Positions 51,671 to 59,800 of a stretch of DNA of 64,000 nucleotides are shown here, piece by piece. Made by a program: the position numbers and the translations under genes. Under the pieces are notes generated by a model that was given only the letters and a program-made list of their open reading frames with translations, searched no databases and had not been told where the DNA came from. Within the stretch, counting starts at the first letter, position 1. Each line of letters opens with the position of its first letter. The stretch is from assembly GCA_051362555.1 (NCBI GenBank), contig CM120649.1:1426001-1490000 (forward strand), given 5' to 3'. Origin of the DNA: Lingula anatina. Its lineage: Eukaryota; Animalia; Brachiopoda.

Positions 51671-51701
51671 ATGCAGCAACCAGTGATGCAGCAGCCAGGA
51701 G
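51671..51701 (+). CDS. PLSCR coding exon C1
   Basis: Acceptor ttttag at 51634; [10 protein letters not shown] then G|gtcagt; phase 1 matches C2. Confidence 0.65.
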
Positions 51702-54531
51702 GTCAGTACTAGTACTAGTATAGTACGGGTATAGCACTAACACTGGTCAATTTACTAACTAGTAGCCAAATGCTAAAACTGAATTAAGTTGGCTAAACCG
51801 AGGACATATATTCAATATACGTGACCCTTGGCTAAACAAAATGGGGGTGATTTGACTTGTTTTAGTCATATTTAATTCATTTGAAGAAGAAAGTACTTGT
51901 GATAGAAAAGTAATTTAGTAGTGACTTGGCTAGGTGAAAAAAACTGCTAGTGCTGTCCCAGTTTTGTCAAATTGGACAGTTTTTAAAATTAAATGGGAGT
52001 TGTAGATGAGACAGTGAGAGAGACTTATCTTCATTACCAATCACCGATTTAACCAAGAAGCCCAAACTTATTTTTCAAAAGTGGGAAATTCATGCCAGGG
52101 GAATTTTTTTTTTTCAAAAGTGGAAATTTATGGTAAGTAGAGAGTCTCTCCCTCTCTCTCTCTTTTTTTTCCAGATTTTGTGCTTAGATTGGTCTTTATA
52201 TTAAGCATCCTACAATGTCCATAAGATTAATTTTTGTCAGTCTGCATTTCATTTCTTATTTATTAGATTTTTTATGGCTTTATTACAGCTACTGTATAGA
52301 TCTGTGGACTGTTACACCTAGAATAATTTCACAAGGTCTATGTTATTTCAACACGGAAACATTATCCTTGATATCCTATCCACCTGCTTTGCTGCTTTTC
52401 TTTTCTTTATCAGCATTTTAAAGTGAATTTATCATATTCTTGACCAGGATGTGGCTTTCAAGCGAAGTTAAAGAGTGTGATAAGACCATTTCTTATACAT
52501 CCTGCTTTGAACGTTTTGTTTTTCATGTGTAAGAAAAAAAATCCAAGACTTCCTCTTGGTAACTATGTAAAAATGCTTGGGAGCTGCATACTGTTCTTGC
52601 AGTTTGTTATAAATCTAGAGGACCTACTGCAGGGGTGGATCCAGAGATATTTTCTGACAGTCTTCCAAATTATCTTTGTTGATCCAGCCTCCATTTTTGA
52701 CCGTCTTCCGAGAGAAAAAATTAGATACCCATCAATGAAAACTTGAAAATCTGACCGTCTTCCGGAAGACCCAGAAGAATCCGCCACTGTACTATTAACT
52801 AGTATGTTCCAATCTTTTTTCTTTTCTTTTTTAATAGACCTTATTCTTGAACACCAAAATGTGGATAATGTTACTGACATGTAATCAAAGTCACTAGGGT
52901 GGAAAGCGGCCACACCCTTTTGCATGAAAGACCATGACAATTTCCTAAATAGTTGCAATCATAAAAACTCTTTTCAAAATACACATTATACTAGTATGAG
53001 CTGTCTTTGTTATCTAGACTTTTTTCCTATTGAACAATGTGCTACATAAGGCAAAAGAGGGACATCCATTCCTTGACCTAGTTTTGTTTGAATTTTGTAC
53101 TCTCAAACCTGTTTGAAACTTGATCACAGATTTATCATCGGTAGCTAAAGGGCCATGCCCCCTTCCCCCCCCTCCCACCCTCCCCGATCTTCTTCCCTTT
53201 GGGTCATCTTTATATGATTAAAGTGAAGGCTTTTTTTATGTACATGTATTTTCATGTTTTAATTTACTAGCTTCTAATTTTTACCATTAGAGTGAACATT
53301 AATTATTACTAGAACAATAGACTTTCTTTCAGAATATGTTATATATCAGAATGAAATTTAGTGACTGTGGCCTAGAGTACTTTAATAGGGTTGGGTTTGC
53401 TTAACCTTATACTGAATAAGCAAATATACATTATATACTATTCTTAATGTACTAGAACTAAGATTTCATCAGTTCTAGTTTTTCCTGTTTTTTTCTGTAG
53501 TCACAGTGGATGATAAGGTATTGCAGATTATTTCATATATCATTTCATTTGCCTTTGGTTCTAGGTCAAATATTTTCCTTGATAAAAATAAACAGGGTGC
53601 CATGATGTCGATGTGAATGTACTGAGATTTCATCATTAGTCATATTTTCTGTTTTTCTATCTTATATCACAACAGATTGAAATTTGTTTTATATATATTA
53701 TTACCTCTGACAAGGATGCGAGGTTTTGCTTGTCATTTGTTTGTCTGTAGAAAGCATTACTAGTATGCAAAAAGTCTTGAATAAATTTTGATGAAATTTT
53801 CAGGATGGGCCACAAATGGGCTAAGTAGGAAATGGTTAGATTTTTGTGATAGTCCATTAATTGATTAATTAATAATTTATATTTTCATGCCAGCCCCTGG
53901 GGGATGGATGGTGCAGCCCCAGGTCCCCGTTGGCTGTCCTCCTGGTCTGGAGTACCTTACTCAGGTAGACCAGGTGCTAGTCCATCAACAGACAGAGCTG
54001 CTGGAAGGTAAGACTAGGCTCTGTTCACATTCAACTTGAGCCGGGCCTAACTGAGCCATGGCTCAAATATGGCCCAACCCACTTGAAAGCATGCTATTAG
54101 TAAGATATAAATTATTGCTCTACGCCTGTAGGGATGGTGCGTGTGGAAGGTGGGAATCCATTGTGAAGTGCATGCCATATTTGATGCAAAGATCAGTTGC
54201 TCCACAGATCAACTGATTGTGAATATAAGCTTAGGCTCTTGTTTTTGTAGACAACCTATAAAAAGGATTACAACTGTTCTTATGACATTCACATTTCACA
54301 ATGAATACATTATAAAAGCTTACACACACTTACACATATGTGATGTAAATTTATGATATATTTATTGGGATGAAGTACTAGTACTACTTCCACAACTTTT
54401 AAGAACCTCTGTTTCTGTAAATTACTCTATGGTCAAGTTGCAACCTAGTGTTAAGGGAGAATGCAGCACTGTTGATATTAATTTAATGATGATCCATTGG
54501 CAGACATTGTTATTCAAGAAGTAAATCCCAA

Positions 54532-54586
<55 letters not shown>

Positions 54587-56796
54587 GTGTTTTGAACCTC
54601 GTCGTTGCAGCATTTACTGGTTTTGAGACCAACAACAAGTACGAGATCAAGAACAGCATGGGACAGAGGGTCTACTTCGCCGCAGAAGGTGAGATAGTCA
54701 CTAGTACTTGTCAGGGTGTGATTGGAAGTTGAATCTAATTTGAGAGAGAGAGAGAGAGAGAGGCAAACAGCATGGGACAGAGGGTCTACTTTGCCGCAGA
54801 AGGTGAGATAATCACTAGTACTTGCGAGGGTGTGATTGGAAGTTGAATTCAATTTGAGAGAGAGAGAGAGAGAGACGAAAAGCATGGGACAGAGGGTCTA
54901 TTTTGCTGCGGAAGGTGAGATGTGTGGGTGAGATGATCACTAGTAGGTGTGACTGGAAGTTAAATTTAGAATTTGGATTACAAGAGTTAGAGAGAATATG
55001 GAGGAGCTCTAGTTCTGTGTTGTAGAATTAAAAGGAATAAGGGAGTGTAAAGTGTATGCTTTGCGAAGAGAAAGTTTTGGGATATTTCAAGCCGAAATCA
55101 AAGAATAGTAGTTTGAATATTCTCTCCCATTAGTCTAGAGAAAGTTCATGTTGAGTGAATGTATTCTTTGTTAATGTAGTTAAAAACAAAAGATTTATTA
55201 CTTTGTTTTCTTAACAGAAAAGGACTTGGGGATGTCATTTTGCCAGATACAATCATTTGCGTTGATCAATGCAAACCCCTTTGATTTTTCATATTGATTG
55301 ATTCATATTTTTCATGTTGCTTGTGATGTCCTGAAAATTGTCAAGTATTATTTGTGCTTTGTAACAAACTAACCTCTGTAATGGCTTGTTTTCCGTCTGC
55401 ACCTGAAAGCTGGTGGATGTTGTTCGTGTTGTAATCGTAGCTGCTGTGGCTCAGCACGCGGGTTTGACATCCGTATCGTGGACACCAGCGGGCGTGAGGT
55501 CATCCATCTAAGACGCCCCTTACGCTGCAGCACGTGTTGGTGTCCATGTTGCTTACAGGTAGTGGTTGCTTTTCGTTGAGTGCTTTGTTGATGTTGCAAG
55601 GTGTTGTCTTGATGTTGAAGAGTGTTGCTTTGATGTTGGAAAGCACTGTGGTAATGTTGCATATTATGTTGTGTTGATGTTGTGGAGTATTTTGTTTGGT
55701 TTGGTCTTATGTTGTGTTGGTTTTGAACTTATTTAATTGCATTGTCTTAATTTCAGAAGAGAGTTATTTATTTGCTAGATGTTATTTGCCTCCCCGCAGT
55801 CTCCACTCTTCAGATGTCACTTGTATCAAGACAAGCCGCATCCCGATTTATTTATTTATTTATTTATATAATTGATGTTTTGTATACATTTTTTAGACAC
55901 TGATTGCTGCACGCGGAACATTTGTGGAAACGGTCGACCATTTGACATGAAAATCATGGACAATGTCGGTAAAGAGGTCATCCATTTATCCCGTCCCTTG
56001 AGATGCAGCACTTGCTGGTTTCCATGTTGTTTACAGGTACAAATGAACAAAAATGCTATTTGACTGCATATTTCAGAACCTTTTTGCAGTAAGGCTAGGC
56101 CCTTGTAAGTAAGTTAAACATTTTTGTATTACTTAAGAGGACTTAACCTAGTGTTTAAATACAATAAGCGTGTATTGGTTTCTTTTTTGTTTACAGGTAA
56201 GAAAAGCTAACAAACAAACAAACAAATCATAATACTTATAGTTTGTTCTTAGAAAATTCAACTTTCCCTTAAAAAAGTTGAACATATTTGATTTGAAGAT
56301 TGCTGTTTTATTTTTTCTGTGTTATTTTGCCTAATTTTTTAATTTGTATTTGTCTATTGGGGTGTATTGATGCAGTGGATACTTCTTATTGAAATGTAGA
56401 TTTGTATCAAATTCATGAGAATGCCTTTTTCTTTTATTGCAAAATTCTATCAAAAATAATGTAAGTAATATTAATGATTCAGGACCTACTGAATGGAGAG
56501 AGATAACTGAAAAAGTATAACCATAAAATCTTATGTTTAAAATATGCTTGAATTTTTATGACTGATCAGTCATTATATTATAAAAGAGAATTGCATCTGC
56601 TAGCTATGCACTGTAGAATTGCAAATTAAATCTACACGAAGCTCTACTAATTGATTATCAGTTTTTAAGATAATTGGAATAATTTTTATAGCTTTTATAG
56701 AGAGGAACAACAAAGGGAAACGAAAGCCCAATTTGATATCTCATTCTAACTGAATTGTTTGCTTTTCGTGTAATGATCTCTTCCTAGTATTGCTAT

Positions 56797-56827
<31 letters not shown>

Positions 56828-59800
56828 TTTCCCCATAGAGAGTCACCGTGGAGGCTCCCCCAGGCCAGGTGATAGGCTATATAAAACAAGCCTGGAGTAT
56901 CTGCAAACCCAAGTTTTACATCCAGAATGAACATGGAGACGACATCCTCAGAATTGACGGCCCCTGCTTTACTTGCAACATCTGTGGAGACGTGCAGTTC
57001 CAGGTAATACATTTAATACGGAGAATTTGGCCCCATTCAGCATAGGGGACTAACTAGTCCAAGGGTCAAATATGGCCGACCCACTTAAATACTTCCCCAT
57101 GGGATATCTATTCAGAGTCTATTAGCCGATAGCGGATTAGATGGCAAGCTTTGTAGTGGGTAATAACAGTGATTGCAGTAAGGGAGAATCTCCCGTAGAT
57201 TTGGATCGATCCAGCTAGTAAGATAGGTTTATCCCTTTGATAGGTGTATCCGTTTAGGTTTATCCCTTTATCCCTTTGCATTTTCTAGGTCCTGTCCAAG
57301 GACGGGAGCGCCCAGGTGGGTCAAATCTCAAAACAGTGGTCAGGGATCGTCAAGGAAATGTTCACGGACGCTGACAACTTTGGCGTGTCTTTCCCCATGG
57401 ATCTGGATGTGAAGATGAAGGCAGTCATGTTGGGAGCCGTTTTCCTAATTGTGAGTATTCTGCTCCATAGGTGGCGCTGTGGTGCATATAATCAGCTTAC
57501 CAGCATAAATGTTTCTGATAAATGAATCCAATGTTTTTGTTATCGAATACGAGAAATTAAAAAAAATATTTTTAAATGAGAGCACTACTTGGTACATAGT
57601 ACATTGCATACATTTGGAAATCATTATAGGAAAGGGTAGTGTCCTCAGTTTGGGGATATTTTTTAGTATGGAAAAAGATTTAATCCTTTATTTTTAGTGA
57701 AAAGAATGTAGAACTAAATGTTGAAAAGGAATTTTTCAAAATGGGAGCTTCAGAAGGGATTTTATATGCATGTCAATTATTTTTTTTACCATCCCTGTTA
57801 GCCTTTGTGAACATGTTCTCACGTGTCAATTAGGGTCATGAATGACATTTTCATTTAAAATTTTTAGTTTTTTTGTTGTTAAAAGTTTATTTGTTACCTA
57901 TTTGAGTTGATTAGAATTTACATTTTGGTTTAGGACTTCATGTTTTTTGAACAATCTGGAGGTGATAAAGAGCAGCAAACTGTAGGAATGCTCTAGTGTC
58001 ACAGGTAAAGGTCAAGGTGAAGGTGAAGGTCAACATTCTCTTCCCATGGATCCTACTTTTAACTGTTAAAATATACTTATGGTTTATTTATTTATATAGC
58101 TATTGTTTGCATGGGGCAATATGGCTTATATGTAATTATTGTTTGTTTTGCAGCACATAGGGGTTTGCATGTTTTTCATTGTTTTATTTTAATGGCCGTT
58201 ATATATTGATTATGTCACAGTGCACAAAAAACTAGCAAAGCTTAATAACCACAACTATTTCTTAGGAACTGGAACTTCTTTGGGTATCTGACTGATGCTT
58301 CCGCTTTTATAGTTTCTAGGAAACATAATAAATGTGGTGGGTTGTTTGTATAATATTCAAAATGTAGCTGCACAGCTCTCTGCTTCCAGATGGTACTGCT
58401 TTAAAAATCTTTTTATCTCTTCTTAAAAAAGAAAGACTTTTCATCTCTCATGCTTCTTTTCAGTGGTCTATAGACTTGCTTTCTTTTGCTTGTACATCAA
58501 CATATTCAACTGATATATGTGCTCAAATGGTATTATAATGTTTGCAGCAGTTATGTCATTATCCTTTTGCAGCACATTTCATACCTTTGGTCATTCTGTA
58601 TTTCACTTTCTCTCAGTATGTTACATCTCCTGTGTATTTTTCTCTCATCTACACTTTTCTTTATCCAGGATATGAAACGGCTAAAAGAGTTGGACACCAT
58701 AATTATCATTTCAGTCTCCTCTCTATTCTCTGTATCATTGCTTCCCTTGGCTGTATATTTCAACTGTTTTCCTCAATTCTAAATCTTCTGTGTTTTTCCT
58801 TTCAACTTTTCTTCTGCTGTATAGGACATGATGTACTTTGAACAGAATACAGATAAGGCCAAAAGAGGGGGACACCATCACCACTAAGCCAAGAAGACAC
58901 TGTCAGGTACCTTCTGGCAAGGAATGCTGCAGCTCTGTTATAACAGCTGTTTCTGAAGCATTCAGCATTGCATGGCACTTTTATATGCATCATGCTCTGG
59001 TGATTCCCCTCCTCCACCCCCCTCCCCCCCTCCACTTCCCTGCCACACACACACACACACATACACACACACACATCTTTCACACTCTTCATTAAATTGG
59101 GTATGGTATAAACTACATGCATATGTCAATAGAGCCTCTCCTCTATTCTAGATCAGAATTGCATATTTATACCCTAGTGTCCAAAAGGGTTTTAAGATTT
59201 CTGAAGCCCTCAGTGGCCCACAGAGGTATTGCAATATTGCCCAAAGTGCACTTTTATAGAAAAGAAACCCCCTTCTTGACAGGAAGAGCTACGGATGAAA
59301 ATTGTCCGTAAGCCTTATTGGAATACTTTGAACCTGCCTGCAGGCAAACTGCTAACACATGTTTAGCAATGGGCACCTTTCATTTCCAACCCCCATTGTG
59401 ACCTACTTATTTGTAGCATGGTTAAAAGGTCAAAGGTGATGACCTATGACCCGACCTGACCTAATTATTGCATCCTTTTTTCCTTTCAGGACTATATGTT
59501 CTTTGAACAGGCAGGGGACAAAAAGCAAGACAGTGTTGGAAATGTTATCTAAATGATTCTACAGAGAGCTTCCACTTGGAACAAAATTAATGCAGGCATG
59601 AATGTTAAAATTGTGCGATTAATGGAAAAGAAAAATATGTCAGAATAGAAATAAAATAAATGATATCTGTGTACATCATTTAACAAATTATTAATGGACT
59701 AGCATTAAATAAATGCAAAGTGATCATTTAGCGCCAGTAATCAAATTTCAAAAAGTCACGAGGAAAATATAATAGTAAGCAGCATGTAAATTTTGTCAGT

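Follow-up and report, generated by a model that had tools for sequence, protein, structure and literature searches.

An unannotated but intact copy of exon 4 in the phospholipid scramblase 1 gene of the brachiopod Lingula anatina

The phospholipid scramblase 1 gene of the brachiopod Lingula anatina contains two homologous copies of exon 4 in tandem (C4a and C4b), and only the second of these was seen in spliced RNA. Our leading reading, held with middling confidence, is that C4a is an old copy of the exon that has been kept by selection, that is likely to be mutually exclusive with C4b, and that is spliced either rarely or in contexts outside those sampled.

Gene organization and the two copies of exon 4

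The gene lies on the + strand of the window (the whole 64,000 nt stretch of DNA that was analysed, to which all coordinates refer). Its model was built from a reading of the DNA, the joints found in RNA reads, and the NCBI protein phospholipid scramblase 1 isoform X1 of L. anatina (P0272), to which exon C5 is 100% identical. Isoforms X2 and X3 belong to the same protein cluster as P0272, and P0272 scores 312 bits against the Pfam Scramblase family (PF03803; cut-off 25.4 bits). Exon C1 ends at 51701, C2 spans 53894–54007 and C6 spans 57289–57450, all three placed on the + strand by DNA, RNA joints and P0272. The constant exon C3 (54611–54688, +, 78 nt) is fixed by the joints 54007→54611 and 54688→55897 and by a translation equal to that of P0272; it exits in phase 1, and the GT immediately after 54688 is the donor to exon 4. 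C4a (55410–55558, +, 149 nt, 11 Cys) is unannotated and was recognized by its open frame, AG/GT borders and match to PF03803, and C4b (55897–56036, +, 140 nt, 7 Cys) by RNA joints and NCBI isoforms X1–X3. The following constant exon, C5 (56839–57003, +, 165 nt, phase 0), is the acceptor for either exon 4, and the loose ends of reads behind 56036 read into its start.

The two copies are 338 nt apart and each has its own splice dinucleotides, an AG at 55408–55409 and a GT at 55559–55560 for C4a, and an AG at 55895–55896 and a GT at 56037–56038 for C4b. Since C3 leaves one base and the lengths of both exons are 2 mod 3, either exon alone restores phase 0. When spliced in silico, the form with only C4b encodes 250 residues and that with only C4a 253, and both reach the normal stop; the form with both copies has its first stop at nt 52 of C4b, and that with neither at nt 90 of C5. 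The original prediction had described exons of 149 and 140 nt with entry in phase 1 and exit in phase 0, a frame broken by the inclusion of both or neither, peptides with 11 and 7 Cys, and well-diverged DNA copies with open frames. The sequence agrees on each of these points: the early stops bear out the expected break of the frame, and 90/141 nucleotides (64%) are identical between the copies.

The C4a peptide, which has three extra residues at its start (9 nt) compared with C4b, matches positions 63–106 of PF03803 with 42.5 bits, and the C4b peptide positions 62–106 with 52.8 bits (cut-off 25.4). Of 4506 intronic frames of 150 nt in this gene, only 166 (3.7%) are open. The pair shows the adjacency, the homology, the encoding of the same part of the protein and the separate, same-phase splice sites that are expected of tandem mutually exclusive exons.

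Tandem exon copies are used elsewhere in the same gene, namely at the last coding exon, where three of the four copies are in use. The four lie in tandem downstream of C6 (57934–58004, 58825–58906, 59490 to about 59565, and 61329 to about 61530), encode D-F/Y/M-M-F/Y-F-E..., and each is closed by a stop codon of its own. NCBI isoforms X1, X2 and X3 correspond to copies 1, 3 and 4, and the joints found in reads of this region are 57450→57934, 57450→61329 (45 loose ends in run X4), 58004→59490 and 58004→61329. Copy 2 has four His residues at its end; it is unannotated and is covered at low depth only, with no joint listed.

Three further features of the region were noted. A 114 nt unit occurs as 2.4 tandem copies at 54652–54921, and every copy ends in a (GA)n run; the unit includes the last 37 nt of C3 and its GT donor, so the C3 donor is found twice more within the intron. 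No joint was listed for these, and a few reads of run X3 fall at 54888–55070. A 28 nt stretch at 56172–56199 (TTTGTTTACAG followed by GTAAG...) is 79% identical to the 3' end of exon 4 and its donor, and may be what is left of a third copy, or may match by chance. Within the C5–C6 intron, 57032–57161 is covered by reads in both orientations, with 'opposite strands' joints at about 57073–57161 and loose ends that vary between runs; it resembles an inverted-repeat element of which other copies, located elsewhere, are transcribed as well.

Transcript evidence for the use of exon 4

Raw reads were taken from eight of nine RNA runs filed under this species label, belonging to three studies and to unspecified tissues. 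About 6–30% of each run was read, and reads resembling human DNA were dropped. Runs X7–X9 differ from the window by 1–5%, and of these only X9 was placed at 90% likeness. The joint from C3 to C4b (54688→55897) was found in every run, with 44, 49, 45 and 55 reads in the set X1/X4/X7/X8, and 22, 26, 56 and 35 in the set X2/X3/X5/X9, so that all 332 of the listed junction reads from the C3 donor lead to C4b (eight runs, 6–30% of each read). C4b is likewise the copy present in each of NCBI isoforms X1–X3, which are distinguished solely by their last exon.

Neither a joint to 55410 nor loose ends at 55410 or 55558 were listed in any of the eight runs, in a listing where joints with 2–4 reads do appear elsewhere in the gene. 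Depth was zero over the 5' part of C4a, in the bin 55259–55509 for X1, X4, X7 and X8, and in the bin 55376–55436 for X2, X3, X5 and X9. A few reads lie further into the exon, from X5 over 55437–55619 and from X3 and X2 between about 55545 and 55690; as they run across the C4a donor into the intron, they are unspliced. The original prediction had pointed to junction reads 54688–55410 against 54688–55897 as its check, and the count was 0 versus 332 in the eight runs. It had also named, as the first half of what would speak against it, a lack of reads using the AAG acceptor at 55409, and no read was found to enter C4a there in these runs. The occurrence of both alternative transcript forms, each with one copy or the other, is a further mark of such exon pairs; in Lingula only the C4b form was observed in the eight runs (6–30% of each read). 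The idea of a mutually exclusive pair therefore stands in its anatomy and frame logic but not in the use of C4a in Lingula (0/332 C3 junction reads).

In the study comprising X7–X9, nearly all reads over 53900–58000 are 95–99% alike to the window, with many fixed differences (for run X7, 14 reads at 99+ versus 214 at 95–99 likeness). These animals carry the same species label and appear to represent a diverged population or a sibling species.

Age of the duplication and selection on C4a

C4a and C4b share 30/47 amino acids, and their pairwise comparison gives a pS of 0.73, a pN of 0.26 and a dN/dS of ~0.11. Over the C-terminal 31 codons the corresponding pairwise values are 0.57, 0.19 and ~0.21. 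The flanks of the two copies have no similarity beyond the exon, which, together with the saturation of silent sites, indicates that the copies are old. When the 51 nucleotide differences were placed at random, 0 of 100,000 replicates kept 30/47 identical residues. The skew of the differences across codon positions (12/15/24) is not significant (chi-square p 0.10), and the signal of constraint lies in the packing of differences into few codons.

In a nine-row alignment of exon 4, C4a retains 21 invariant columns, among them all seven exon 4 residues that do not vary across 44 scramblases, and it is 74% identical to the Tubulanus exon. The D-T-x at the start of the exon, kept by nearly all relatives, is lost in C4a. 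Its composition is exon-like, with a GC of 0.557 and a CpG o/e of 0.96, compared with 0.34–0.38 and 0.37–0.45 in the flanking introns. This conservation and composition make C4a unlike a copy that has been drifting since so old a duplication. Judged by dN/dS values of 0.11–0.21 for the pair, C4a has been kept as coding sequence by selection. For C4b, all nine variable places listed in the RNA runs (9/9) are synonymous third positions, which places this exon under present-day constraint.

Twin exon 4 copies in bryozoans and searches for C4a-like exons

Among 33 loci from a metagenome scan, four (L002, L005, L006 and L013) hold two copies of exon 4, 619–677 nt apart, with L005 and L006 carrying the same pair. 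Each of these copies is 140 nt long, has AG/GT borders and is in the same phase, and on contigs L005 and L013 the first and then the second copy follow C2 and C3 and precede C5. Among named organisms, the closest to the twin-exon contigs are two bryozoans, Bugula neritina and Watersipora subatra. In W. subatra, isoforms X1 and X2 (XP_067949126.1 and XP_067949127.1) differ at 12 residues, all of them within exon 4; in B. neritina, P0273 (KAF6020102.1) and the cDNA-derived P0279 differ in exon 4. The cDNAs P0153 and L004 are identical in the 33 residues before exon 4 and in about 100 after it, and differ within the exon; outside it they have three differing residues near the C-terminus. The exon swap is displayed by the protein pairs P0155/P0266, P0273/P0279 and P0153/L004, and the swaps in Watersipora, Bugula and P0153/L004 indicate that twin copies of exon 4 are mutually exclusive in a neighbouring phylum.

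The bryozoan scramblase 1-like genes resemble that of Lingula in family, exon, neighbouring exons, tandem arrangement, phase and a length of 2 mod 3. The divergence between copies is also similar, with nucleotide identities of 0.60–0.70, 31–35/46 identical residues, pS of 0.76–0.90 and pN of 0.17–0.26 in the bryozoan-like twin pairs, and values of 0.64, 30/46, 0.72 and 0.26 in the Lingula pair. They differ in that both bryozoan copies are found in mRNA or annotated isoforms, whereas only the second copy is found in Lingula, and in that both bryozoan copies are 140 nt long, whereas C4a exceeds this length by 9 nt and contains two additional Cys.

In an exon tree (47 columns, 33 rows), first copies from different bryozoans cluster together (support 94/91), second copies form a separate cluster (84/71), and both Lingula copies fall in a polytomy. 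In AU tests on this 47-column exon alignment, none of three groupings was rejected at 0.05: joining C4a to the first copies of bryozoans gave a p of 0.07, joining C4b to their second copies 0.28, and pairing C4a with C4b as sisters 0.33.

A C4a-type start, defined as the three extra residues and a CCSCC beginning, was sought more widely. Among 5.8 billion protein clusters, a search by words gave two matches out of three candidates, from Tubulanus and Biomphalaria, and these had the canonical N-terminal half. A phmmer search of 1.84 billion representatives yielded 379 matches at E <= 0.001, the best 150 of which were used; among 74 exon 4 segments parsed from 73 of 152 proteins, none had a C4a-type start. 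No C4a-like exon was present at the 33 metagenome loci. Both Watersipora isoforms share one 90% cluster, and since isoforms differing in one exon merge in 50% clusters and may do so at 90%, these blanks for the C4a-type start carry little weight.

Splice signals

The putative 3' splice region of C4a (55369–55409, +, from a reading of the sequence) consists of a CTAAC branch-point-like motif (55369–55373, 37 nt upstream), a pyrimidine-rich run and the AAG acceptor. No other AG lies inside the open frame ahead of the conserved residues, and the phase of this acceptor is as required. Among the ten acceptors of the gene it is the sole case with a purine at -3, the other nine having C or T; it is the weakest in the gene, and the original prediction had already called it weak.

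Just past the C4a donor, Tandem Repeats Finder detected GU-rich, degenerate repeats of 21–22 nt (55588–55732, +). The C4a–C4b intron has 3.55 TGTTG per 100 nt, against 0–0.42 in the two neighbouring introns and 0–0.59 in the bryozoan-like loci. By their sequence, the repeats are a possible candidate platform for the binding of a splicing regulator. As a conserved element they were discarded, being absent from the bryozoan-like loci, and comparison thus lends them no support. Exclusion by docking and selector RNA pairing was also considered and set aside: the 11 inverted-repeat pairs in 54689–56838 gave no convincing link between a site beside one exon copy and a shared docking site. These pairs are mostly AT-rich and 70–86% complementary, except for two short overlapping palindromes (14 nt, 93%; 12 nt, 92%).

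Cysteine motif and predicted structure

In human PLSCR1, the motif CCCPCC occupies residues 184–189, and mutation of all its Cys residues abolishes palmitoylation and makes the protein nuclear, according to a review (PMC11854935). This agrees with the premise of the original prediction, that palmitoylation of this motif sets membrane versus nuclear localization of PLSCR1. In the Pfam Scramblase family and in vertebrate-like matches such as P0036, CCCPCC lines up with C-x-x-C-W-C/F-P-C-C, the last part of exon 4. Lingula thus has a Cys cluster homologous to that of human PLSCR1, which differs by one residue between C4a (CWCPCC) and C4b (CWFPCC). The human motif is palmitoylated; the Lingula motif, with its difference of only one Cys between copies, is a candidate for acylation.

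CWCPCC is present in 12 of 19 single-copy exons; as the commonest form in other animals, it makes C4b, not C4a, the copy that departs from the common form. Across seven twin pairs, the first copy keeps CWCPCC in all seven and the second has lost one or two Cys in five. At the level of sequence this pattern fits the idea that exon choice might tune acylation, with the qualification that the bryozoan pairs are not independent of each other and that the same positions vary in single-copy genes. The larger Cys difference between C4a and C4b falls at the N-terminal end of the exon, in a cluster for which we know of no evidence of acylation. By analogy, the tuning of acylation and localization by splice choice in Lingula is a candidate idea and not a demonstrated switch.

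A structure model of isoform X1 has a mean pLDDT of 78.7. Exon 4 (residues 86–132) is predicted to form a helix at 90–98, strands at 101–106 and 112–118, and a loop of lower confidence. The first Cys cluster would lie on the exon 4 helix, followed in the model by two barrel strands and the Cys-rich loop.

Discussion

The main rival to a rarely used exon is a recently silenced relic: C4a would long have served as an alternative exon and would now be unspliced in L. anatina, its decay pending. We consider this possible, if somewhat doubtful. It would account for eight libraries from three studies without a spliced C4a read and for the lack of an annotated isoform with C4a, and it is consistent with an acceptor that is the weakest in the gene (a purine at -3 where 9/9 others have a pyrimidine), with an end branch in the exon tree that is longer for C4a (0.43) than for C4b (0.27), and with the missing D-T-x start. 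However, C4a retains an intact frame, its AG and GT and every residue that is invariant in the family, and its GC and CpG show no drift towards those of the AT-rich, CpG-poor introns. Given this intactness, silencing must be inferred to be very recent relative to the (undated) duplication. The absence of C4a from steady-state poly(A) RNA could also be explained by decay if it were a poison exon, whose inclusion with C4b shifts the frame and, through nonsense-mediated decay, lowers the amount of scramblase. Double inclusion does produce a stop at nt 52 of C4b, but a poison exon needs no conservation at the protein level, yet C4a keeps its invariant residues at a dN/dS of ~0.1–0.2, and not even rare C4a reads were seen; we regard such a role as very improbable.

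That C4a is a neutral pseudo-exon, its frame open by chance after the duplication, has barely any likelihood, and we take it to be rejected by dN/dS, the Monte Carlo result and composition. An open frame alone would not be surprising, as about 16% of random-substitution replicates stay open, as do 3.7% of intronic 150 nt frames. With silent sites saturated, though, a neutral protein would be near random, whereas C4a has 30/47 residues in common with C4b, a figure reached by 0/100,000 replicates, and 74% identity to the Tubulanus exon; it also retains splice dinucleotides and an exon-like composition. Diverged silent sites speak against gene conversion as the means by which a neutral copy stayed similar. 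A wider conjecture, to which we give a low probability, is that exon 4 is a lophophorate-wide switch exon, duplicated before the brachiopod–bryozoan split or repeatedly, with versions that set the number of acylatable Cys residues; C4a would then provide an 11-Cys isoform for a rare cell type or for a stimulus such as infection.

If C4a is a rarely used exon kept by selection, it would still be spliced in somewhere. By default it would be held off by the weak AAG acceptor, perhaps together with the GU-rich repeats, until a regulator switches it on, and the frame break followed by nonsense-mediated decay would clear the products of double inclusion and of skipping. The protein made with C4a would have a changed short Cys-bearing helix, barrel beta-hairpin and Cys-rich loop, the latter aligned to the palmitoylated motif of PLSCR1.

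The IIIb and IIIc exons of FGFR2 are homologous and mutually exclusive, and exclusivity is enforced by reading frame and nonsense-mediated decay. Like C4a and C4b, they are adjacent, have lengths that are not multiples of three, and break the frame if both or neither are included. In the case of FGFR2 the two forms are known, as are the regulators, whereas in Lingula only C4b has been seen in RNA. In the portions of the literature searched, we found no description of alternative exon 4 copies in scramblases, whether of Lingula or of bryozoans.

For genome annotation, C4a would be an example of a selection-kept exon that was missed by standard RNA sampling and by reference annotation. The scramblase family has been studied mainly in mammals, where one Cys-rich motif sets membrane versus nuclear localization. 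If the exon carrying this motif can be swapped in an animal, it would offer a natural pair of isoforms for testing the role of the Cys residues, and the isoforms of bryozoans already supply such a pair.
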